Below the pieces are notes generated by a model, which saw only the letters and a list, made by a program, of their open reading frames with translations, was not told the origin of the DNA and did no database searches. This document shows positions 43,977 to 57,390 of a stretch of 64,000 nt of DNA, one piece after another. A program made the position numbers and the translations under genes. The DNA lies in contig CBDIPT010000002.1 in assembly GCA_965283725.1 (NCBI GenBank), forward strand, positions 537,354 to 601,353, given 5' to 3'. Position 1 is the stretch's first letter, and every line of letters begins with the position of its first letter. Origin of the DNA: Limisphaerales bacterium. Lineage in GTDB: Bacteria > Verrucomicrobiota > Verrucomicrobiia > Limisphaerales > JAEYXS01.

Positions 43977-45005
43977 ATGAATATTGAACAAGGGCATAAG
44001 TGGCTATTTGAGCTCACAAATTTTCGCGTCCACATGTGTGATGAGAAAACCATCTCGCCGGTTCCTGGCGACGCTCCCAAAGGGACATTGCCTGGTTGGA
44101 AAAGGAACCTTATCTCGTTCGATTTACCTGATAGGCAGTGGACTCTGATTGATTACACGATTCCCGATAGGCCTACCCGTGATGAAATTGAAGGTAGTAC
44201 GTTAATTAGCGGCGAACTTTTCACGGAAATTAAACCGCACGACAACTTAGATGAGATTCTGGAGACCGTTGACATTTTATGCATGTTACTCTCTTTTGCG
44301 TTAGGTCGAGGCATTGCTGCTCCTGATTGTTATAAGCAGTCAGATGAAAATGTAACTTTTGTTCGCAGCCGCAGTATGCGAATGGATTTGTATGCTGACG
44401 GCGGGTATGCTCTCATCGAAAACTCGCGAAAAGGACAGTTACGTTCGTTTCTGGAATGTGCCTATCCTATCGTTTTAAAAAAGAAGGGATGGTGGCTTAA
44501 AACTCTAGATTTCTCAATTCAGGCTCGGATGAGTGTGTTTCTCGAAATTCAAGCATCTCTTTCGAATGTTCTTTTGGATAGGATAGCCGCGTTCTATCCA
44601 GAAAATCGTGTTGGAGGGGAAATCGACGAGACTTTAGATGAGGTAATCAATGATCCACAATTCAAGAGGCAGATAACGGAATTAATCGAAGAGTATTGCG
44701 CTGGTTGGACTCAAAAACGGACTGAGGAATACATAATCCAGCACCTTGCTAACTGTAATAAACGCCCTTCATTCGCTAATGGCATCAAACGGGTCCACCG
44801 TCTGAACAATTTGGAAGAGCCTAAAGGCAAATTTTTGAGTCAACGTCACAAACTACTTCACGAAGGCGATTTGACTGACGGAGATGATGATGCCGCTAAA
44901 TACGTTAATCAACTCTTTGCAATGACCGGGCGATTGCTGCTCAAAATGCTCGGCTATTCTGGTCGTTACTATGACATATCCAGTGGCGCATATGCTTTAA
45001 TTTAA
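43977..45005 (+). CDS. hypothetical protein with C-terminal HEPN-like Rx4H motif (candidate ApeA/Abi-type RNase)
   Basis: 342-aa ORF in AT-rich DNA. SQRHKLLHEG is encoded at 44838-44867 (R 44844-44846, H 44859-44861), followed by the helix AAKYVNQLFAMTGRLLLKML. Confidence 0.75.
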   Translation: MNIEQGHKWLFELTNFRVHMCDEKTISPVPGDAPKGTLPGWKRNLISFDLPDRQWTLIDYTIPDRPTRDEIEGSTLISGELFTEIKPHDNLDEILETVDILCMLLSFALGRGIAAPDCYKQSDENVTFVRSRSMRMDLYADGGYALIENSRKGQLRSFLECAYPIVLKKKGWWLKTLDFSIQARMSVFLEIQASLSNVLLDRIAAFYPENRVGGEIDETLDEVINDPQFKRQITELIEEYCAGWTQKRTEEYIIQHLANCNKRPSFANGIKRVHRLNNLEEPKGKFLSQRHKLLHEGDLTDGDDDAAKYVNQLFAMTGRLLLKMLGYSGRYYDISSGAYALI

Positions 45006-46553: not shown

Positions 46554-47041
46554 GCAACGAGCTGCAATTGCGGAACCGGCAGAAGACGCGAGCGATCGAT
46601 ACGAAGTTGCTGAAGGCGGCGACGCGCGCCTTGCTGGTGGAAGAGCTGGCGTTGAAGACGTATCAACTGGGCATCCATCTGGTGGAGCCGGAGGAGATGG
46701 CGCAAGTGAACTGGGATTATCTGCAACACGAGGGTTCCACGGATGTCATCACTTTTGATTACCGCCCAGAGGTGCCGCCGGGTGAAGAAGTGCCGGAGCT
46801 TTATGGCGAGCTGTATATCTGTGTAAACGATGCGCTGAAGCAGGCGAAGGAGTTCAAGCAGCATTGGACGGAGGAACTGGCGCGCTATGTGGTGCACGGG
46901 GTGCTGCACTTGCGCGGGTTTGATGACCTGGAGCCGGCCAAGCGGCGGGTGATGAAACGGGAGGAGAACCGGCTGGTGAAAGCTTTGGCCGGGCGTTTTG
47001 CTTTGAGAAAACTGGCGGGTGGGGTTAAGGTGCGCCCGTGA
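46550..47041 (+). CDS. ybeY: rRNA maturation endoribonuclease YbeY
   Basis: HGVLHLRGFDD zinc motif. ATGA overlap with phoH. Confidence 0.9.
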   Translation: MSNELQLRNRQKTRAIDTKLLKAATRALLVEELALKTYQLGIHLVEPEEMAQVNWDYLQHEGSTDVITFDYRPEVPPGEEVPELYGELYICVNDALKQAKEFKQHWTEELARYVVHGVLHLRGFDDLEPAKRRVMKREENRLVKALAGRFALRKLAGGVKVRP

Positions 47042-47739
47042 AAAGATATTTCGGCCACTGGCAGGCCAATTTCTTCACCGGTCTCGCGGTGATCTTGCCG
47101 GCGGTCCTTTCTCTGGCGCTGGTGCACTGGCTGTTTGGCACCATTGCCAACCTGACTGACACGTTGCTCATCTTTATCCCGGCCCACATCACCCATGCAG
47201 AACATGGCAAGGGGCCGATGCACTGGTATTGGAGCGTGTTCGCGCTGGTGCTGGCGGTGGGGTTGGTGGCGCTCATCGGCACGGTGACTCGGCTATATCT
47301 GGGACGGCAAATCATCCAGGCAATGGACCGGCTGATGTTGCAGGTGCCCTTGCTGAACAAGATCTATGGCGCGATCAAACAGGTGAATGATGCGTTTGCC
47401 ACGAGCAAGAATTCCTCGTTCAAGCAGGTGGTAATGGTGGAGTTTCCGCGGGATGGGGTGTATTCCATCGGGTTCATCACGGGGGATCAGCATAAGGAAG
47501 TGGAAGCCAAGACGCGGGAAAAGATGGTGAGCGTGTTCATCCCTACGACGCCGAACCCGACGTCGGGCTATCTCATCTTGGTGGCGGAGGCGAAGCTGAC
47601 GAAGCTGGATATGCCGGTCTCGGATGGTATCAAGTTCATCATCAGTTTGGGCTCGGTGGCACCGGAGTATCAAGGGAAGCCAGCGGGTGCACCGAATGTG
47701 AAGATCGCACAACCGGTGGGGACCGAGCCAACTATCTGA
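47038..47739 (+). CDS. DUF502-domain membrane protein
   Basis: N-terminal TM pair FFTGLAVILPAVLSLALVHWLF and a later ...PTTPNPTSGYLILV string typical of DUF502. Confidence 0.7.
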   Translation: MKRYFGHWQANFFTGLAVILPAVLSLALVHWLFGTIANLTDTLLIFIPAHITHAEHGKGPMHWYWSVFALVLAVGLVALIGTVTRLYLGRQIIQAMDRLMLQVPLLNKIYGAIKQVNDAFATSKNSSFKQVVMVEFPRDGVYSIGFITGDQHKEVEAKTREKMVSVFIPTTPNPTSGYLILVAEAKLTKLDMPVSDGIKFIISLGSVAPEYQGKPAGAPNVKIAQPVGTEPTI

Positions 47740-47809
47740 ACGCGCTTCAGGGGGCTTCTTGCACACACGGCGACCAGGCCGCAGATACTGTTTGGAGTGA
47801 TTGTTGAGA

Positions 47810-48238
47810 ATGAAAATATCATACCATGGTATTGTGCTGTGTTTCTTGTGTTTCTTTTTTGCGTGTAGCAAGGCTGAGAGAATTAGCAAGGCGGATGCTA
47901 CAGCTTCTATAATCAAAACCACGTATTTTAATGTTGAATTTGAGCCGGATGGGTTTTCCCGATTGAAATGGCTTCGTTCCAAAGGTGTTTCGGATTCGGA
48001 GTTGGTTGTTTTTGTGAGTGATTGGAGTCGTAACCCTCAGAAAACGATTGAGGAATTGGATAAAAACGCGCCGCCGAGAAAAGACCTATGGGGGCATGAT
48101 TTAAGAGTAAGGTGGCGATCAAAAGAGGATCCTGAGACTTTGCTGCCGGGCAAAAATCTGATCATTTGGTCGGTTGGTCCAAATGGAATTAATGAAAATT
48201 GCTCAGGAGATGATGTTGTGGTTTCTTGGAAGTTGTAA
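47810..48238 (+). CDS. AT-rich lipoprotein-like hypothetical (pseudopilin-GspG-C-terminus-like tail)
   Basis: ATG at 47810. MKISYHGIVLCFLCFFFAC has a lipobox-like FFAC. The C-terminal IIWSVGPNGINENCSGDDVVVSW recalls the type II pseudopilin tail. Confidence 0.55.
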   Translation: MKISYHGIVLCFLCFFFACSKAERISKADATASIIKTTYFNVEFEPDGFSRLKWLRSKGVSDSELVVFVSDWSRNPQKTIEELDKNAPPRKDLWGHDLRVRWRSKEDPETLLPGKNLIIWSVGPNGINENCSGDDVVVSWKL

Positions 48239-48437
48239 AATGATATGATATGTTTTTTTAGGTTCTTGTTGGAGTCTTCTGGTTTACTTTAAGTTACTCT
48301 ATATAGGCATGCGATTTGAGTTCACAGGCAGTAGTGCGATTGGTGAAATCGACCCTTCCCTTTCTGTGGATATATGTGGAGAACTGCACCTTTGGATCTT
48401 TGGTGACTGTGGGTTGCATTCTCAGTTGGGGGTGTGA

Positions 48438-49359: not shown

Positions 49360-51426
49360 TCAGAACGGGTTGCTTTTGCCGCTCTTGCCGAATTTGCGGT
49401 TGCCCTTTTTGCCTTTGCCGTAGCTGGTGGGTTTTCCGGAGCCAGAGTCTTTGCCTTCGCCGCCGAGGAAAGTGCGTTTGAGTTCGTTGATCTGGTCGCG
49501 GAGCAGGGCGGCTTTCTCGAATTCCAAATTGTTCGCAGCGTCGAGCATCTCGCCTTCGAGCTGTCGGATGGTCTCGGTGACATCGAATTCGGGCTGTTTG
49601 TCGCGCAGGAAGGCGGTGGCTTTCGCGGTGACTTCCTTTTGCGAGGACAGGCTGTCTTCCACCGCGCGGCTGACACCTTTGGGCGTGATGTTGTGCTCGA
49701 GGTTGTAGGCGAGCTGGCGTTTGCGGCGGTACTCCGAGGTGGCGAGGAATTTCTGGATGCTCTGGGTCATCACGTCCGCATAAAGAATGACGAAGCCGTT
49801 CAAGTGACGGGCGGCGCGACCAGCGGTCTGGATGAGGCTGGTGGTGGAGCGCAGGTAGCCTTCCTTATCCGCATCGAGAATGGCGACGAGCGAGACTTCC
49901 GGTAGATCGAGGCCTTCGCGCAGGAGGTTGATGCCCACGAGGACGTCGAAGTCGCCTTTGCGCAAGGCGCGCAGGATCTCGACGCGTTCGATGGCGTCGA
50001 TCTCGCTGTGCAGGTAGCGGATGTTAATGCCGATATCGCGCAAGTAATCGGTGAGTTCCTCGGCGCTGCGCTTGGTGAGCGTGGTGACAAGCACGCGCTC
50101 TTTCAGTTCTACCCGCTTACGGACTTCTTCGAGGAGATCATCGATCTGGCCTTTCAGCGGGCGGATGCTGATGGGCGGGTCTACAAGACCAGTCGGGCGC
50201 ACGATGAGTTCTGCGACGCGCTGGCCGGACCATTGTAGCTCCTGTGCGGCGGGCGTGGCGCTGACGTAGATGACCTGGTCGTGCAACTTCTGGAATTCGT
50301 CGAAATTCAACGGGCGATTGTCCAGGGCGCTGGGCAGACGGAAACCATGGTCCACGAGCACGCTCTTGCGGGAGCGGTCCCCGGCATACATGCCGCCGAT
50401 CTGCGAGACGGTGGCGTGGGATTCATCGATGACGAGCAGAAAATCGGGCGGAAAGAAATCGATGATCGTGGCCGGGCGCGAACCGGGCGGGCGCTTGGCG
50501 ATGTGGCGTGAGTAATTCTCGATGCCGGAACAGAAGCCCATCTCTTCCATCATCTCCAGATCGTATTCCGTGCGCATCTTGATGCGTTGGGCTTCGAGCA
50601 GTTTGCCTTCCTTCTCGAACCACGCGATGCGTTCACCGAGTTCCTCGCGGATGCTCAGGATGGCGCGTTTCAATTTGTCAGCGGGGGTGACGAATTGTTT
50701 GCCGGGATAGACGGTGATGGCCTCGAATTGTTCCAACGGATCGCCGAGCAAGGGATCGAAGCGCGTGATGCGGTCGATCTGGTCGCCGAAGAATTCGATA
50801 CGCAGGCCGTCTTCCGTGTAGCCGGGGCGGAGCTCCACAGTGTCGCCGCGCACACGGAATTCGCCGCGTTCGAAGGCGATGTCGTTACGTCGGTATTGGA
50901 TGTCCACGAGGCGGCTGAGGAATTGGTCGCGCGAGATCTCCATGCCGACCTTCAACGGAATGACCATGGCCTCGTAGTCTTCCTTGCTGCCGGTGCCGTA
51001 GATACAAGAGACGCTGGCCACCACGATGACATCGCGCCGGGCGAAGAGCGAACTCATGGAGGAGAGGCGCATGCGCTCGATCTCCTCGTTGATGCTGGAA
51101 TCCTTCTCGATGAAGGTGTCCGTGCGCGGGATGTAGGCCTCGGGTTGGTAGTAATCGAAGTAGCTGACGAAGTATTCGACGGCGTTGTCCGGGAAGAAGC
51201 TCTTGAACTCGGCGTAGAGCTGGGCAGCGAGCGTCTTGTTATGCGAGATGACGAGCGTGGGGCGGTTCACCTCTTTGATGATGTTCGCGATGGTGTAGGT
51301 CTTGCCGGAGCCGGTGACGCCGAGGAGCGTCTGATGCTTCGCGCCCGCGCGCAACCCTTCGGTCAGCTTCGCAATGGCTTGCGGCTGATCTCCGGCAGGT
51401 TCGTAGGGTGCGACGAGTTTGAACAT
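49360..51426 (-). CDS. uvrB: excinuclease ABC subunit B
   Basis: 688-aa [16 protein letters not shown] Walker A, helicase motifs, and a UVR domain [17 protein letters not shown]. Gly/Lys-rich C-terminal tail. Confidence 0.95.
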
Positions 51427-51477: not shown

Positions 51478-51553
51478 TTAACCGCAGATTGACATAGATG
51501 AACACAGATTAGCTGAAACATCGAACATCCAACATCGAACTCCGAACATCGAG
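51478..51553. repeat. composite intergenic repeat: GTTAACC-headed module plus aacatcgaac-type module R4
   Basis: gttaaccgcagattgacatagatgaacacagattag, then aaacatcgaacatccaacatcgaactccgaacatcgag. Confidence 0.75.
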
Positions 51554-51694
51554 AGGTGGCGGAGAGGCCCTGAATAGGGTTGCGGTGCGACTTGCTAAAA
51601 ATGTGAACTGCGGCTAAGAATATGGTGAGTCAGGAAGGCTTTTGACCAGGACTTAGCAGGTTTATGCGGGCGCCACCATGTGGAATGCGATTAA

Positions 51695-53002
51695 CTACGC
51701 TGGTTCTTCTTTAAATTTCTTTTTCTGCTTGAGAAGATATGCTAGATGTTTGCGAATTTGCTTCAAATCCTCCCCATCTCTGTTCCTGAATTGATAATAG
51801 AGATCGAGATCGTCTAGCGTCCGGATTCTCTTAATGTGTGTGAAAATGAAAGCGAAAGTCGTCTCGCATATCAATTTTAGAAATTGAACATCCACGTCTT
51901 TAATCTCGCTGTATTCTCCTCGATGAACTGCATTGTTTCTCTTGTCGGCGATTTCATTTAGAGCCAGTTTCAGGCCGATTCCGTCGGGAAGGAATATTTG
52001 TTTGTAAGCGGCTAACCTTTCACAAACAACATCAGTTTTGCCTGATGTTCGATCTGAAAGCGTTAGCAGTTCTGCCAATTGCCAGAAGCCGACTAAGCGC
52101 CTATGAATCATCGTTTCGCTTAAAGCTTGAGAGTAAAGACGAAGGGCTGTTGCAAGGAGATCTTTCGTGGAACCTTTTTGGGGTATAGCTTTAAAGAAAA
52201 CAGCATTTTTAAGTATGGCTGCGAAGGTTTGTTCGTTAAGAGTTTGTGTTTTTTCCGGTTCTGTTGAATCGACTAGAATATGAGCGACCTTCTTTGTTTT
52301 TTCTGAAACTGCTACAATCCATCTAGCAGCTTCTGAATAGCAAGCGGACTTGGGGTATATAGACCAACCAAATTGCCGATTCCCAAATCCTTGTGTTAAT
52401 TCGAAAATACCTTTTAGGGTTTCATAGGCTGCGTCGATTTCCAGCCATGCTTTGTACCAGTCTTTCCCTTTAACATGCACTCGCCAAAAAGTTGGAGGCG
52501 AAGTTCTTAAGCGAATTCCATACTGCAAAATATCTGCCTTGTAATGTTCGAGCTCATGCTTGGCAGATTCTCCTTCCAACATCTGAAATGAAGTTCCCAA
52601 CACCTGCAGGCGCTTTGGGGCTTTGCTGTGTGTTTTGAAAAAGGCGGGTATCAGGAAAGTCCAAGTCGTTTCTTGTCTTTTTTGTGCGTCAGAGGGTGTT
52701 CGAGAAATGGTGGAGTAAACATTCTCGAAATCTTCAATACTTGAGAGTTCGGATTCTGCCATCATGGTTAATGCCTTGGCCAAATTCGCTTCCGTAATCC
52801 TAGGGCGGTCACAAATTTTTCTAAGAGCAAGTGCGCCTACTTGGAGTATCAAGTCAAAGGAGCAATTCTCATCAGCCGACGTGGATTTTGAGCTGGGACA
52901 ATGCTTAATCAAATTTTGGATTATATGGCTTGCAGCTTTGCGGTTGCTGCTTGCTTTTGATTGCTCAGATCCAAGCCATCTAAATTGAGGGTTTTTGCTC
53001 AC
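51695..53002 (-). CDS. hypothetical protein with C-terminal HEPN-like Rx4H motif (candidate Abi/defence RNase)
   Basis: 435-aa ORF in AT-rich DNA. DKRNNAVHRGE is encoded on the minus strand (R 51938-51940, H 51923-51925), flanked by predicted helices LLATALRLYSQALSE, LVGFWQLAELL and VQFLKLICETTFAFIF. Confidence 0.75.
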   Translation of the reverse strand: MSKNPQFRWLGSEQSKASSNRKAASHIIQNLIKHCPSSKSTSADENCSFDLILQVGALALRKICDRPRITEANLAKALTMMAESELSSIEDFENVYSTISRTPSDAQKRQETTWTFLIPAFFKTHSKAPKRLQVLGTSFQMLEGESAKHELEHYKADILQYGIRLRTSPPTFWRVHVKGKDWYKAWLEIDAAYETLKGIFELTQGFGNRQFGWSIYPKSACYSEAARWIVAVSEKTKKVAHILVDSTEPEKTQTLNEQTFAAILKNAVFFKAIPQKGSTKDLLATALRLYSQALSETMIHRRLVGFWQLAELLTLSDRTSGKTDVVCERLAAYKQIFLPDGIGLKLALNEIADKRNNAVHRGEYSEIKDVDVQFLKLICETTFAFIFTHIKRIRTLDDLDLYYQFRNRDGEDLKQIRKHLAYLLKQKKKFKEEPA

Positions 53003-53116
53003 CTGTTCGTGAAGTTACGCTCAGCTTTATGAATGCCAAGTCAAACGTGAGGTGGTGGTTTTTAAATACGATTTGCTTCAATGATTTTTGTGATTAAGGT
53101 AAAACACATCAATCCT

Positions 53117-54010
53117 ATGAAGATTCGCACAGCACTTTGTTTGATGGCTTTGGCCATTTCGGCGGTTTCAGTCAATGCACAGCAGCGGTTGCCGCGGGAG
53201 CCGTTCCCGCTTTGGCCGGAGGGCGCGCCGGGGGCTTTGGGCAAGGAGGACAAGGATGTGCCGACGTTGTCGCCCTATTTTGCGAATCCGGAGAAGGCGA
53301 CGGGGGCGGCCATCGTGATCTGTCCGGGCGGTGGTTATGGCGGACTGGCGCCGCATGAGGGGCGGGATTATGCGATGTGGCTGAATGAGCAAGGCGTGTC
53401 GGCGTTCGTGCTGAAGTATCGGTTGGGCTCAGCGGGTTATCGGCATCCGGTGATGTTGAATGATGTGTCGCGCGCGTTGCGGTATGTGCGGGCGAAGGCG
53501 GGCGAGTGGAAGCTGGACGCGAAGCGCATCGGGATCATGGGGTCCTCGGCGGGCGGGCATCTGGCGTCCACGTTGCTGACGCATTTCGATGCGGGTGATG
53601 CGAATGCGAAGGATCCGATCGATCAGGTGAGTTCACGGCCGGACATCGGCATCTTGTGCTATCCGGTGATCAGCATGGGGCCGCTGACGCATGGCGGGTC
53701 GAAGAAGAATCTCTTGGGCGATAATCCGTCGCCGGAATTGGTGGAGCTGCTCTCGAACGAGAAGCAGGTGAAGAAGGATACTCCGCCGACGTTCATGTTC
53801 CACACGTTCGAGGATTCGGCGGTGAAGGTGGAGAACACGTTGGAGTTCGCGGCGGCGTTGCGGAAGAACGGGGTGCCGTTCTCGCTGCATATCTATCCGA
53901 AGGGTCCGCACGGGATCGGGCTGGGCAAGGCGCAGTGGGATCCGACGGCGCGGCATCCGTGGACGGGCGAGTGTGTTGGGTGGTTGAAGGAGCAGGGGTT
54001 TATCAAATAA
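53117..54010 (+). CDS. secreted alpha/beta-hydrolase esterase/lipase
   Basis: ATG at 53117 with signal peptide MKIRTALCLMALAISAVSVNA. ICPGGGYGG oxyanion region and the GSSAGGHLA elbow. Confidence 0.8.
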   Translation: MKIRTALCLMALAISAVSVNAQQRLPREPFPLWPEGAPGALGKEDKDVPTLSPYFANPEKATGAAIVICPGGGYGGLAPHEGRDYAMWLNEQGVSAFVLKYRLGSAGYRHPVMLNDVSRALRYVRAKAGEWKLDAKRIGIMGSSAGGHLASTLLTHFDAGDANAKDPIDQVSSRPDIGILCYPVISMGPLTHGGSKKNLLGDNPSPELVELLSNEKQVKKDTPPTFMFHTFEDSAVKVENTLEFAAALRKNGVPFSLHIYPKGPHGIGLGKAQWDPTARHPWTGECVGWLKEQGFIK

Positions 54011-54013
54011 CGA

Positions 54014-54058
54014 GAAACATCGAACATCGAACGCCCAACTTTGAACATCGAAAGAGAG
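54014..54058. repeat. R4 repeat copy (gaaacatcgaacatcgaacgcccaactttgaacatcgaaagagag)
   Basis: About 90 percent identical by eye to 54521-54566. Confidence 0.8.
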
Positions 54059-54092
54059 TGAGAGGGCGGGAAAGTGGGAGTGGGAGAATTTG

Positions 54093-54128
54093 GCACCCGT
54101 CTGGCTGAGAGGCTGGGCGGGTGTTTTT
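54093..54128 (+). terminator. intrinsic terminator downstream of the esterase gene
   Basis: cacccg (54093-54098) pairs with cgggtg (54117-54122), followed by tttttt. Confidence 0.7.
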
Positions 54129-54131
54129 TCT

Positions 54132-54195
54132 GCCCGCGAAATACGCTAAAGACACGAAATGGGAGTGACGCGAATTGCGCGAATTTGCGCTAATT
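54132..54195. repeat. R3-type repeat plus cgcgaattgcgcgaatttgcgctaatt module
   Basis: cccgcgaaatacgctaaagacacgaaatgggag matches the 42384 and 49084 copies. Confidence 0.7.
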
Positions 54196-54520
54196 AGGTA
54201 TCCGATCTTTGGAAGTGGTTCTGTTTCAGTGAGTTTTGGAGGGTGAGGATTATTTCGAGGAAATTGGGGGTTGGACAGCAGATGTCCTACCCCCTTCCGC
54301 ATAGTGGATGCAGAAACTAACAAAGGTTCACTATGAAACTGACAGAACAAAGTGAGTTGAAGATGGAAACAGGATGTCGGCCGGTGGCGCGGCGGTATCG
54401 GCGGATATCGCAGTCGAACTGGTGGTTTTCGCAGATGCGGCGGGCAGTGAATGGGGCGTGTCCGACGGAGCAGGGGCCGGAACGGCGGGTGGTGCAGAAG
54501 GTGTTGCCTTTAGGTTAAGG

Positions 54521-54566
54521 GGAAACATCGAACATCCAACGCCCAACTTCCAACATCGAAAGGGGG
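54521..54566. repeat. R4 repeat copy
   Basis: ggaaacatcgaacatccaacgcccaacttccaacatcgaaaggggg. Confidence 0.8.
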
Positions 54567-54616
54567 ATTGGTCGCAAAAAGGCACAAGAGGCACAAAGAG
54601 AAGAATAGATAGGGGC

Positions 54617-54668
54617 GACGCGCCAAGGCGCGTTCGGGAAAGCTTTGGCAAGCCAAAGCACTCCAAAG
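54617..54668. repeat. two-hairpin module R7
   Basis: gacgcgccaaggcgcgt and gctttggcaagccaaagc are palindromes, ending in cactccaaag. Homologous to 49124-49177. Confidence 0.7.
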
Positions 54669-54792
54669 GGGAAGCCGAGCAAGGGCAAAGAAATTGTTGG
54701 GAACGGCGGCACGCCGTCCCTCCCGGGATTTGGGCGGGAAGGGGTTTGCATTCTGGCGGGCGGGGGGCAATCTTGGGGGATAATTTGTGAGC

Positions 54793-57390
54793 ATGATTAC
54801 GACTGAAGCGGGAAAGACGAATGGGGCGGGTGGAGCAGGTGCAGCGTCCATCCCGGCGATGCCGCCGGGGGTGGAGCTGACGACGTTGCCGAATGGGCTG
54901 ACGATCATCGTGCGGGAGGATCACAGCGCGCCGGTGGTTTCCGCGCAGGCATGGGCGAAGACAGGGAGCATCCATGAGGGTAAATGGATGGGGGCGGGGC
55001 TTTCGCACGTGTTGGAGCACATGCTTTTCAAGGGGACGACGACGCGCACGGGGAGTCGCATCGATCAGGAGGTTCAAGAGGCGGGCGGTTACATGAACGC
55101 CTACACGTCGTTTGATCGCACGGTGTATTGGATCAATGTGCCGAACACGGGCGGGAAGGTGGCGATCGATATCTTGTGCGACATCATGCAGAACGCCTCG
55201 CTGCCGCCGGATGACTTGGCGAAGGAGCTGGACGTGATCCGCCGCGAGATGGATATGGGGCAGGATGATCCGGGACGGCGGTCGGGGCGCAGACTTTTTG
55301 AGACGGCGTATACGCGGAGTCCGTACCGGTATCCGATCATCGGGTATCTCGATATTTTCAACGAACTGAAGCCGGAAGATATCCGTGGCTATTACCATCA
55401 GCGTTACGCGCCGAACAATGTGTTCTATGTGGTCGTTGGCGATGTGAATGCGGCGGAGGTGGTGGAGCAGATCAAGGCAGCGTGGGCGAATTCCAAGGCG
55501 CGGCCCTTGCCGGACATCGTGTTACCAGTGGAGCCGCGACAGATCGCGGAACGGATCACCGTGGAAGAGGCGACGGTGGAGCTGGTCCACTCGCACATGA
55601 GCTGGCATATCCCGGACCTGCGGCATGTGGATGTGCCCTTGCTGGATGTGCTGGGCACAGTGCTAGGTGCGGGGCGGAGTTCGCGGCTGTATCGCGAAGT
55701 GCGCCAGAAGCAGGCGGTGGTGAATCATGTGGATGCGTGGACGTATAGTCCGGGCAATCCGGGGCTCTTCGGCATGAGCATCGTGTGCGAAGGCGAGAAG
55801 CTGGAGAAGGCGCAGGCGGCGGTGCTGGCACAGCTCGATCTCGTGAAAGAAAAGGGCATCACGGAAGCGGAGTTCGCCAAGGCGGTGAAGCAATTCACGG
55901 CGGCGACCCTTGCGACGCGCAAGACGATGCAAGGTCAGGCGCAAGATCTCGGCGGCAGTTGGCTCGCAGCGAATGATCTGAATTTCTCGGAGCGTTATCT
56001 GGAAGCAGTGCGCAAGGCGTCGCCAGCCGATCTGCAACGGGTGGCGAAGCAGTATCTCACGACGGAGAACCGCACGGTTTACTCGCTGGTGCCGACGGGA
56101 TTGGCACCGAAGGCGAGCAAGGCGGCACAACAGCATCAGACGAATGCCATCCAGTTGTTCACGCTGGCGAACGGGTTGAAGCTGCTGGTGAAGGAAGATC
56201 ATCGGCTGCCGTTCGTAGAGTTTCGCGCGGTGTTCCAGGGCGGCGTGCTGGCGGAGACGGCGGAGAACAATGGCGTGACGCAATTGCTCGCGCGGATGCT
56301 CCTGCAAGGCACGAAGAAGCGCACGGCGGACCAGATCGCGGAAGAGATTGAGTCTGTGGGCGGAAGCATTGATGCCTATGGCGGGAACAATAGTTTCGGG
56401 CTTTCGGCGGAGACGTTGAACAGCGATTTTGCGCTGGGGATGGAATTGATTACGGATGTGCTGCTGCACGCGGCGTTTCCGGCGGATGCGCTGGCGCGCG
56501 AACGCGAGATGCAGTTAGCGGCGATCCGGTCGCGCCGGGATCATCTGTTGCAGAGCTGCAGTTCGCTGATGCGGCGGACGTTGTTCGGGCCGAGCGGTTA
56601 TGGCTTTGACGGCACGGGCACGGAGGAGAGTGTGGGGCGTTTGGACGAAGCGGCGTTGCGGAGCTTTTTCCATAAGGTCATCGCGCCCTCGAATTGCGTG
56701 CTGGCGATCTACGGTGATGTGAAGGCCCCGGCGGTGTTAGCGGCGGTGGAGCAGGCGTTGGGTGGGTGGAAGGATGCGGTGAGCGGTCACTCCTTCGTGA
56801 ATGCGTTGCCGAAGCCGGAAGCGAGCGAGCTGCGGCATGTTTTCGAGGCGCGCGACAAGAAGCAGGCGGTGGTGGTGATCGGGTTTCCGGGGACGACGCT
56901 TCGGGCGCCCGACCGTTATGCGATCGAGCTGCTGGCGGAGGCGTGCAGTGATTTGGGCTCGCGCTTGTTCATCCGCATCCGCGATCAACTGGGGCTCGCT
57001 TACTACGTGGGCGCGCAGAGTTTCCCGGGATTGGTTCCGGGCGGGTTCTGGTTCTACGTGGGCACGGCACCGGAAAAGGTGGCTCTGGTGGAGGAAGAAT
57101 TGCTGAAGGAAGCGGCCTTGCTCGTGAAGGAAGGGCTGACGCCGGAAGAATTGAAACGCGCGAAGGCGAAGATCATCGGGCAGAAGAAGATCGGGCGGCA
57201 GGAGTTGGGCGGTTATGCGCAGACGACAGCGCTGGATGAGCTTTACGGAATGGGCTACGCGAACAATGAGACGGAAGACCAGCACTATGAGGCCGTCACA
57301 GTGGAAGAGGTGAAGGCCGTCGCGGCGAGGTATTTGAAGCCAGAACAGGCGGTGGTGGCGGTGGTGGGGCCAGAAAAGAATGGGGAGTAA
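54793..57390 (+). CDS. M16 (pitrilysin/insulinase) family zinc peptidase, double-length
   Basis: HVLEHMLFKGT inverted zinc motif (HxxEH). Two M16 active/inactive domain pairs in 865 aa. Confidence 0.9.
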   Translation: MITTEAGKTNGAGGAGAASIPAMPPGVELTTLPNGLTIIVREDHSAPVVSAQAWAKTGSIHEGKWMGAGLSHVLEHMLFKGTTTRTGSRIDQEVQEAGGYMNAYTSFDRTVYWINVPNTGGKVAIDILCDIMQNASLPPDDLAKELDVIRREMDMGQDDPGRRSGRRLFETAYTRSPYRYPIIGYLDIFNELKPEDIRGYYHQRYAPNNVFYVVVGDVNAAEVVEQIKAAWANSKARPLPDIVLPVEPRQIAERITVEEATVELVHSHMSWHIPDLRHVDVPLLDVLGTVLGAGRSSRLYREVRQKQAVVNHVDAWTYSPGNPGLFGMSIVCEGEKLEKAQAAVLAQLDLVKEKGITEAEFAKAVKQFTAATLATRKTMQGQAQDLGGSWLAANDLNFSERYLEAVRKASPADLQRVAKQYLTTENRTVYSLVPTGLAPKASKAAQQHQTNAIQLFTLANGLKLLVKEDHRLPFVEFRAVFQGGVLAETAENNGVTQLLARMLLQGTKKRTADQIAEEIESVGGSIDAYGGNNSFGLSAETLNSDFALGMELITDVLLHAAFPADALAREREMQLAAIRSRRDHLLQSCSSLMRRTLFGPSGYGFDGTGTEESVGRLDEAALRSFFHKVIAPSNCVLAIYGDVKAPAVLAAVEQALGGWKDAVSGHSFVNALPKPEASELRHVFEARDKKQAVVVIGFPGTTLRAPDRYAIELLAEACSDLGSRLFIRIRDQLGLAYYVGAQSFPGLVPGGFWFYVGTAPEKVALVEEELLKEAALLVKEGLTPEELKRAKAKIIGQKKIGRQELGGYAQTTALDELYGMGYANNETEDQHYEAVTVEEVKAVAARYLKPEQAVVAVVGPEKNGE

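Follow-up and report, generated by a model that had tools for sequence, protein, structure and literature searches.

Between uvrB and an alpha/beta-hydrolase esterase gene, a 64,000-nt stretch of DNA from a Limisphaerales bacterium (GCA_965283725.1, CBDIPT010000002.1:537,354-601,353, forward strand; hereafter the window, to which coordinates refer unless a locus label precedes them) carries an AT-rich gene on the minus strand, the subject of this analysis. GC content across 51600-53199 is 0.415-0.445, compared with 0.57-0.65 on both sides. The open reading frame (ORF), its length of 435 amino acids (aa), its place between the two neighbors and its AT-richness had been noted in a preliminary description of this DNA, and the ORF list, the translation and the domains of the neighbors agree with that account. 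We suggest that the product is probably a stand-alone three-domain HEPN ribonuclease of an unnamed family distantly related to the anti-phage protein ApeA, and that its gene is accessory cargo at a chromosomal site whose content varies. That its C-terminal domain is a HEPN domain is very likely, and a role in defence is likely. The features of the locus are collected in Table 1; of the two esterase starts given there, 53117 is probably the true one.

Table 1. Genes, repeats and predicted protein regions at the uvrB-esterase junction of the window (AF2, AlphaFold2; UTR, untranslated region).
Feature	Position	Strand	Description and basis
uvrB	49360-51426	-	UvrB_inter, UvrB and UVR domains
Host intergenic ACATCGA heptamer repeat	51513..51556		Adjoins the cassette, outside it; L004/L006, without the gene, have the same block beside uvrB
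Accessory cassette, ~1.55 kb	51553..53103		Absent from L002-L006, shared only with L001 (end-to-end alignment)
HEPN-family gene	51695..53002	-	435 codons plus stop, GTG start; ORF list and translation
C-terminal helical extension after H4, residues 391-435 plus stop	51695..51832	-	AF2 helices 396-405, 410-432
Predicted HEPN core, residues 273-390	51833..52186	-	H1 279-295, H2 299-313, insert 316-341, H3 342-361, H4 369-388
Predicted catalytic motif R355-N356-N-A-V359-H360 (Rx4H)	51923..51940	-	Followed by G362 (51917-51919); family conservation, ApeA alignment
Helix-2 signature W307-Q308-L-A-E311	52070..52084	-	Family conservation, ApeA alignment
Middle alpha/beta domain, residues 109-272	52187..52678	-	AF2 strands 112-143, 171-179, 228-255; helices 144-160, 182-205, 257-269; variable
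N-terminal helical domain, residues 1-108	52679..53002	-	AF2 helices 14-33, 51-63, 71-83, 89-101, 104-108; variable
Internal ATG (Met80)	52763..52765	-	Start used by the public 356-aa call
Upstream region within the cassette (presumed promoter plus 5' UTR)	53003..53103	-	Aligns only with L001; L002-L004 share a different sequence
Alpha/beta-hydrolase esterase	53081/53117-54010	+	BD-FAE, Abhydrolase_3

The protein belongs to a sizeable family. A word-indexed search covering 5.8 billion clusters yielded, apart from the query protein, a single relative at 56% identity, and exhaustive searching of 1.84 billion representatives with HMMER recovered 414 family representatives (clusters at 50% identity) at E<=1e-3, of which 222 reach E<=1e-10 and 63 reach E<=1e-30; when the indexed search was repeated with the family alignment, five were found. 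A scan of genome contigs with the first two-sequence alignment gave no relative, nor did a scan of viral contigs, which depends on exact patterns, and the broad family alignment is too diverse for designing search patterns. Members come mostly from uncultured environmental bacteria, Verrucomicrobiota included. The public sources checked hold no name for the family, its labelled members reading "hypothetical protein", and no Pfam, NCBIfam or PADLOC model scored above threshold for the window protein, 41 members or the family consensus.

Conservation across 125 aligned sequences is highest in the C-terminal domain. H360 and W307 are invariant (125/125), R355 and E311 are each kept in 124 of the 125, Q308 and G362 in 122, Y290 and R329 in 121, and V359 in 120. 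Position 356 is N in 117/125 sequences and H in 2/125, and R-[NDH]-x3-H occurs in register in 118/125. Every nearly invariant family residue is intact in the window protein. A bare Rx4-6H motif is not beyond chance and means little here, because another such motif occurs in the same protein (RKAASH at residue 21), but the family conservation of the motif is beyond chance. Residues 273-390 have the highest conservation in the family, at 2.06 bits per column with 41/117 columns above 2.5 bits, compared with means of 1.32 for the N-terminal part (1-108) and 1.27 for the middle part (109-272). At the level of sequence, this pattern fits what would be expected of a conserved effector with variable accessory domains.

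The predicted structure is consistent with this division. An AF2 model built on the two-sequence alignment had a predicted local distance difference test score (pLDDT) of 40 and was discarded, and a model built on 125 sequences reached a pLDDT of 91.7 and a predicted template-modelling score of 0.88. It falls into three parts, N-terminal helical, middle alpha/beta (112-269) and C-terminal all-helical. The preliminary description had placed four helices in the last ~130 residues; all four match helices of the model, although the region is longer, at ~160 residues, and its positions for R355 (51938-51940) and H360 (51923-51925) hold by arithmetic on the translation. In HEPN domains, Rx4-6H closes helix 3 at the start of the loop between helices 3 and 4, the residue after the arginine is usually N, D or H, helix 2 contains a conserved acidic residue, and inserts occur between helices 2 and 3 (PMC3710099). 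Judged from the alignment and the model, all four points appear to fit: RN..H stands at the end of helix 342-361, which ends at G362 and is separated by a loop (362-368) from helix 369-388; the arginine is followed by N356; E311 lies in predicted helix 299-313 and is a candidate for the acidic residue that HEPN active sites conserve; and the insert 316-341, with short helices at 316-319 and 323-330, lies between helices 2 and 3. Foldseek returned no HEPN structure among its matches. For residues 1-272, in which the preliminary description had likewise recognized nothing, no structural or sequence relatives were recognizable, and Pfam gave no match to residues 1-108 or 109-272 even with the domain consensus.

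Sequence evidence for a HEPN fold comes from ApeA, a one-gene system whose protein of 570-620 aa consists of an N-terminal, a Mid and a split HEPN domain. This protein assembles into rings of HEPN dimers, is activated through a ligand pocket between the N-terminal and HEPN domains, and then cuts tRNA anticodon loops or phage RNA (bioRxiv 10.64898/2026.01.26.701840, 10.64898/2026.03.20.713152). When the 125-sequence profile was searched against 177,635 distinct PDB sequences, the best two matches were Ec4ApeA (9hxm, E=1.9e-4) and Ec3ApeA (9hxj, E=0.021). Each was matched in two ordered blocks, one comprising the end of the middle domain and helices 1-2 (LRLYaqAmd...f.LglWQlaEaitL against FRFFRNGIE...FTAYWSALESLTL) and the other helix 3 (aLaekRNdiVHrG against LYLLRNTIVHNaG). 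The catalytic motif is thereby aligned to RNTIVH in Ec4ApeA and RNNIVH in Ec3ApeA, and the helix-2 signature to YWSALE and LWIALE, respectively; the last ~40 residues of the middle domain fall inside this collinear alignment, which spans ~140 of 435 residues in the case of Ec4ApeA. For comparison by hhalign, full-length Ec4ApeA and a 44%-identical relative were taken from plasmids. The best alignment paired residues 236-317 of the window protein with 308-387 of ApeA (E=0.0046, probability 7.6%) and the second-best paired 345-403 with 498-556 (E=0.021, probability 2.3%), the catalytic motifs being aligned in the latter. An indexed search seeded with an Ec4ApeA fragment gave short fragments only, and the ApeA model in PADLOC matched neither the 41 members nor the consensus. 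Ec4ApeA itself (L060:1604-3433 on plasmid NZ_LC556211.1) adjoins the anti-phage gene ppl; 62 plasmid records, mostly from Enterobacter and Klebsiella, contain it at >=99% identity under the label "hypothetical protein".

Two further HEPN families match the same motif below threshold. RiboL-PSP-HEPN (PF18735) aligns with residues 334-374 of the window protein at 14.9 bits (E=0.026; gathering threshold 28.4 bits) and gives sub-threshold matches on the catalytic motif in 11 of 41 members (best E=0.0065), and DUF4145 (PF13643) has a sub-threshold match there as well. Pfam is equally silent, at E<=0.01, on Ec4ApeA, whose HEPN structure is solved, and its silence on the present family therefore says little. 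In the literature, nothing was found on a MauJ link or on RiboL-PSP-HEPN.

The extent of the gene needs some comment, since the public gene call (P0001) is only 356 aa long and starts with MMAESEL at ATG 52765. Met80 is probably not the true start. Family members have an interquartile length range of 409-426 aa (~418 aa being typical), the match of the 356-aa query begins near residue 60-70 of its relatives in the exhaustive profile search, and window residues 1-79 align with the conserved N-terminus of relatives in the family alignment, where a conserved Trp lies a median of five residues from the start in 77 members. AF2 also models residues 1-79 as helices with a pLDDT of 74-96. The relatives' lengths, the N-terminal alignment and these confident helices make the GTG start at 53002 better supported than the database call. 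In the only close orthologue, at locus L001, the N-terminal extension is in frame and conserved, yet GTA stands at the position of the GTG, and L001:2200-2490 has no canonical start before a TTG at 2365; translation in L001 may begin at a non-canonical codon, or its product may be a shortened protein. Upstream of the window gene we found no Shine-Dalgarno-like spacing and no sigma-70-like promoter consensus, a consensus that may not be the promoter type of this phylum, and Rfam, promoter and terminator scans of the locus gave nothing informative.

The junction differs among related genomes. With the esterase as anchor we retrieved 32 loci, mostly from Verrucomicrobiota metagenome-assembled genomes (MAGs); in the closest of these, uvrB is 95-98% and the esterase 88-91% identical in amino-acid sequence, and the content of the junction varies. 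It is empty in L002 (227 bp) and in the more distant relative L018 (398 bp), contains only a rhomboid gene in L003, a rhomboid gene with an AT-rich ORF of 103-114 aa in L004 and L006, a rhomboid gene with an unrelated 168-aa AT-rich ORF in L005 (where uvrB is outside the fetched flank), a rhomboid gene with the HEPN-family gene in L001 (where the uvrB side is not covered), and the HEPN-family gene without a rhomboid gene in the window. These empty or differently filled junctions rejected the reading of the gene as a core gene. The rhomboid gene, which encodes a Zn-ribbon and a rhomboid protease (L003:4766-5896, L004:4396-5574, L006:4343-5599, L005:4222-5361, L001:3561-4691), is missing in L002 and occurs nowhere in the 64 kb of the window. 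The AT-rich ORFs of the other relatives lie just upstream of the esterase (L004:5593-5937, L006:5628-5939, L005:5426-5932) with a GC content of 0.46-0.48; those of L004 and L006 are orthologous, that of L005 is unrelated and has a hydrophobic N-terminus, and none of the three has a Pfam match. The L002 sequence (CALRJY020000010.1) is titled as a Chitinophaga pinensis MAG, but its DNA is 85-91% identical to the window and syntenic with Verrucomicrobiota MAGs, and the bin is probably mislabelled.

Blastn synteny delimits the insert. Homology to L002 ends at 51520 and homology to L004/L006 at 51552, and it resumes at 53104-53107, leaving 142 bp of cassette downstream and 101 bp upstream of the gene. 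Toward the esterase, the window does not become homologous to non-carriers until ~13 bp ahead of the ATG; the cassette thus comes with an upstream region of its own, in place of the native one. Among hallmarks of mobile elements, we found neither an integrase or transposase nor a tRNA-type attachment site, and no terminal repeats that were convincing. A 13-nt imperfect direct repeat (51550-51562 / 53046-53058, CGAGAGGTGGCGG / CGTGAGGTGGTGG) begins, in its left copy, at the left cassette boundary, but L001 does not preserve the right copy, and the repeat is probably due to chance. The preliminary description had seen repeat-filled spacers on both sides of the gene. This holds on the uvrB side and not on the esterase side, and the heptamers belong to the host, as they are also present in relatives without the gene. 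Tandem ACATCGA-type heptamers recur at 54017-54053 and 54525-54561, and ACATCGAAC with up to one mismatch has 33 matches compared with 14.4 expected, so that the tract looks like a lineage-specific intergenic repeat.

The alleles in this slot might be old. Between the window and L001 the gene has a proportion of nonsynonymous differences (pN) of 0.28 and of synonymous differences (pS) of 0.83, which is saturated, while the adjacent esterase in the same two genomes gives pN=0.08 and pS=0.44. This indicates that the two alleles split long before the flanking core gene diverged, or are evolving much faster. The gene is under purifying selection, with pN/pS ~0.34 relative to the L001 orthologue and values below 1 in the core and the N-terminal extension alike. 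Both alleles sit in one and the same slot, their right boundaries coincide, and each has a GC content of ~0.40-0.43 in a host of ~0.59. The simplest reading, in our view, is that old alleles may have been exchanged by recombination through the conserved flanks.

Elsewhere, family members have no conserved partner gene, and the neighbors differ in every locus examined. They include TIR and C5 DNA methylase genes (L037), PIN (L041), HNH (L043), a Dam-type methylase (L045), a reverse transcriptase (L051), DUF3800 (L057), HicAB with RAMA and Fic (L065/L066), Mrr with DUF4365 (L067), and a Schlafen/AlbA_2 ATPase with a PLD-SNF2 helicase and an AAA_23/21 ATPase (L068). At least one defence-type neighbor is present in roughly 10 of the 16 loci with usable flanks, and in L034, L047 and L063 the gene is a lone insertion among housekeeping genes, as in the window. 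In several hosts its GC content is much lower than that of the flanks (0.45/0.62, 0.48/0.65, 0.45/0.58 and 0.40/0.53). The member in the dense defence-type cluster of L068 (P0085, L068:2209-4044) has 611 aa, with ~90 extra N-terminal and ~150 extra C-terminal residues, and may be a fused variant.

Family conservation, helix layout, similarity to ApeA and accessory status together support the interpretation, already offered in the preliminary description, of a stand-alone HEPN nuclease of defence type. We propose that two copies would pair via their HEPN domains and form a composite metal-independent RNase site, by extension from general HEPN biology (PMC3710099) and the ApeA and DARNA preprints. 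The variable N-terminal and middle domains might keep the RNase inactive until a cue of infection is sensed. Once activated, the enzyme would cleave RNA, with tRNA anticodon loops the most plausible target, as in ApeA, PrrC and DARNA, and phage RNA another possible one; translation would then stop and the spread of the phage would be blocked. The details borrowed from ApeA by analogy, namely gating by a ligand and a tRNA target, can be proposed only tentatively. A bolder proposal would make the protein the first representative of a separate kind of single-protein system against phages, a compact "mini-ApeA" in which residues 1-272, modelled with confidence yet without recognizable relatives, would be a new infection sensor gating the HEPN RNase; the family would be widespread in environmental bacteria, with old, highly diverged AT-rich alleles turning over in fixed slots by recombination through the flanking core genes. 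We consider this extended proposal rather unlikely as a whole.

Several other explanations have to be weighed. The C-terminal domain might not be HEPN at all, but an unrelated helical domain with a conserved R-N-x3-H and a non-nuclease function, as could be argued from the Foldseek result, from Pfam HEPN matches that are all below cut-off and from the low hhalign probabilities. However, both of the best two PDB matches are ApeA, in ordered blocks on helices 1-2 and on the catalytic helix; the same motif region is matched by three HEPN families independent of one another (ApeA, RiboL-PSP, DUF4145); four separate rules of HEPN topology fit; and Ec4ApeA, with its solved HEPN domain, goes without a Pfam match too, all of which makes this explanation improbable. 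We also see little chance that only the 356-aa product, or none, is made and that the gene is a decaying remnant or an over-called ORF. The public call, the GTA in L001 at the position of the GTG start and the missing Shine-Dalgarno-like spacing and promoter consensus would agree with such a view, but it is hard to reconcile with a conserved and confidently modelled segment 1-79, with intact nearly invariant residues and with pN/pS below 1 in both the core and the N-terminal extension, and we consider it very improbable.

If the protein is indeed a HEPN ribonuclease, its role could still be other than defence. It might be the toxin of a toxin-antitoxin or addiction module with an unrecognized antitoxin, either a small protein or an RNA, and stabilize the cassette instead of acting against phages. 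There are well-documented HEPN toxins that pair with a protein or an RNA antitoxin (HepT/MNT, AbiF), a small ORF lies just downstream in a few family loci (85 aa in L035/L036, 132 aa in L041 and 124 aa in L051), and HicAB and PIN modules occur nearby in some family loci. Against this, no partner ORF fits in the 1.55-kb cassette beside the gene, no tandem-repeat RNA was found inside it and Rfam finds nothing, neighbors differ across all loci examined, and 272 residues of extra domains better fit a self-regulated sensor-effector; an addiction module therefore seems a poor explanation. It is also conceivable that the enzyme is an RNA-processing or stress-response RNase serving host physiology, given that housekeeping HEPN RNases exist (Las1 and the Ire1/RNase L-type KEN domains) and that the neighbors are housekeeping genes in the window, L034, L047 and L063. 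Patchy presence among near-identical relatives, foreign composition in several hosts, synonymous divergence that is saturated relative to a flanking core gene, and the recurrence of defence-type neighbors in about 10 of 16 loci all argue otherwise, and we think a physiological role quite improbable.

The window contains other AT-rich stretches, and the idea that this region collects small insertions, also raised in the preliminary description, gains from a third one at 47716-48437. Its GC content is ~0.42 and it holds an ORF of 145 aa (47801-48238, +) with no match in Pfam, PADLOC or NCBIfam. The stretch is specific to the window in comparison with L004/L006, which have only ~30 bp from the DUF502 gene to recO. 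The DUF502 gene (47038-47739), flanked by ybeY and recO, occurs in L004 and L006 but in neither L002 nor L003, so this housekeeping stretch is itself variable. Kinship of our gene with another AT-rich loner at 43977-45005 (+) was rejected at the sequence level (BLASTP E=0.24; hhalign probability 0.4%); the protein encoded there carries its own HEPN-like motif, RHKLLH, near residues 289-294, and the sole aligned stretch pairs RHKLLH with RNNAVH. A dip in GC content to 0.49 follows just after the esterase (54000-54400), and an ORF at 54331-55398 (-, 355 aa), without a Pfam match, overlaps the start of an M16 peptidase ORF.

Prokaryotic immunity employs HEPN RNases as effectors again and again, and recent work on ApeA and DARNA places the interesting biology in what the non-catalytic domains sense. 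The present family would add a compact ApeA-like scaffold with two unrecognized N-terminal domains, and thus a candidate for a new module of trigger recognition, from a part of the bacterial world, the uncultured environmental bacteria including Verrucomicrobiota, that is its main source and whose defence systems have been little charted. While its effector is of a familiar kind, the new parts are the unrecognized N-terminal two-thirds and the locus, which behaves as a small integrase-less hotspot between core genes, with apparently very old alleles, where unrelated AT-rich cargo genes replace one another. Even if the HEPN prediction should fail, the invariant W/Q/E and R-N-x3-H residues would still call for an explanation.

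Among known systems, the HEPN superfamily as a whole (PMC3710099; PF18735, PF13643) shares with the window protein the Rx4H motif with Asn after Arg at the end of helix 3, a candidate for the acidic residue in helix 2, the insert between helices 2 and 3, and defence or mobile contexts, whereas scores are below every Pfam gathering threshold and neither W-Q-x-x-E nor an N-terminal portion of ~270 residues is described for PF18735 or PF13643. HEPN-MNT/HepT pairs consist of a minimal HEPN protein and an adjacent nucleotidyltransferase antitoxin gene; the window protein is longer by 272 residues at its N-terminus, and no partner gene adjoins it in the window or in the family loci. PrrC/RloC, AbiD/F, AbiJ, AbiU2 and AbiV are likewise accessory HEPN RNases, triggered by phages and following the logic of a latent toxin with a sensor; however, PrrC/RloC carry an ABC-ATPase domain and associate with restriction-modification systems, and the Abi families have Pfam models of their own, none of which matched the window family. 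DARNA / PD-T7-3 is also a single-protein HEPN defence RNase, similar in size (456 aa), with a large non-catalytic domain and, once activated, cleaves tRNA anticodon loops (bioRxiv 10.64898/2026.02.22.705581). Its HEPN domain lies at the N-terminus (R117x4H122) and a Pds5-like domain at the C-terminus. We detected no sequence similarity to it, and it was rejected as the closest relative because the domain order is reversed.

ApeA comes closer, although membership in the ApeA family was rejected too. The window family, at ~420 aa, is ~200 residues shorter than ApeA, has ~30 instead of ~110 residues between the two aligned blocks, and has an N-terminal domain and most of a middle domain that cannot be aligned; we do not file it as ApeA for these reasons. 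Moreover, PADLOC gives no match, the similarity is marginal (E ~1e-4) and coverage is low, the ApeA authors requiring >80% in PSI-BLAST for membership. On the other hand, both families are stand-alone proteins in which a C-terminal HEPN domain is, for the window family, predicted to lie behind N-terminal helical and middle domains. Both have additional helices after H4 (predicted in the window family), defence-type neighborhoods and no conserved partner gene, and W..[LA]E..TL in helices 1-2 and RNxIVH.G in helix 3, together with the end of the middle domain, are collinear between them.

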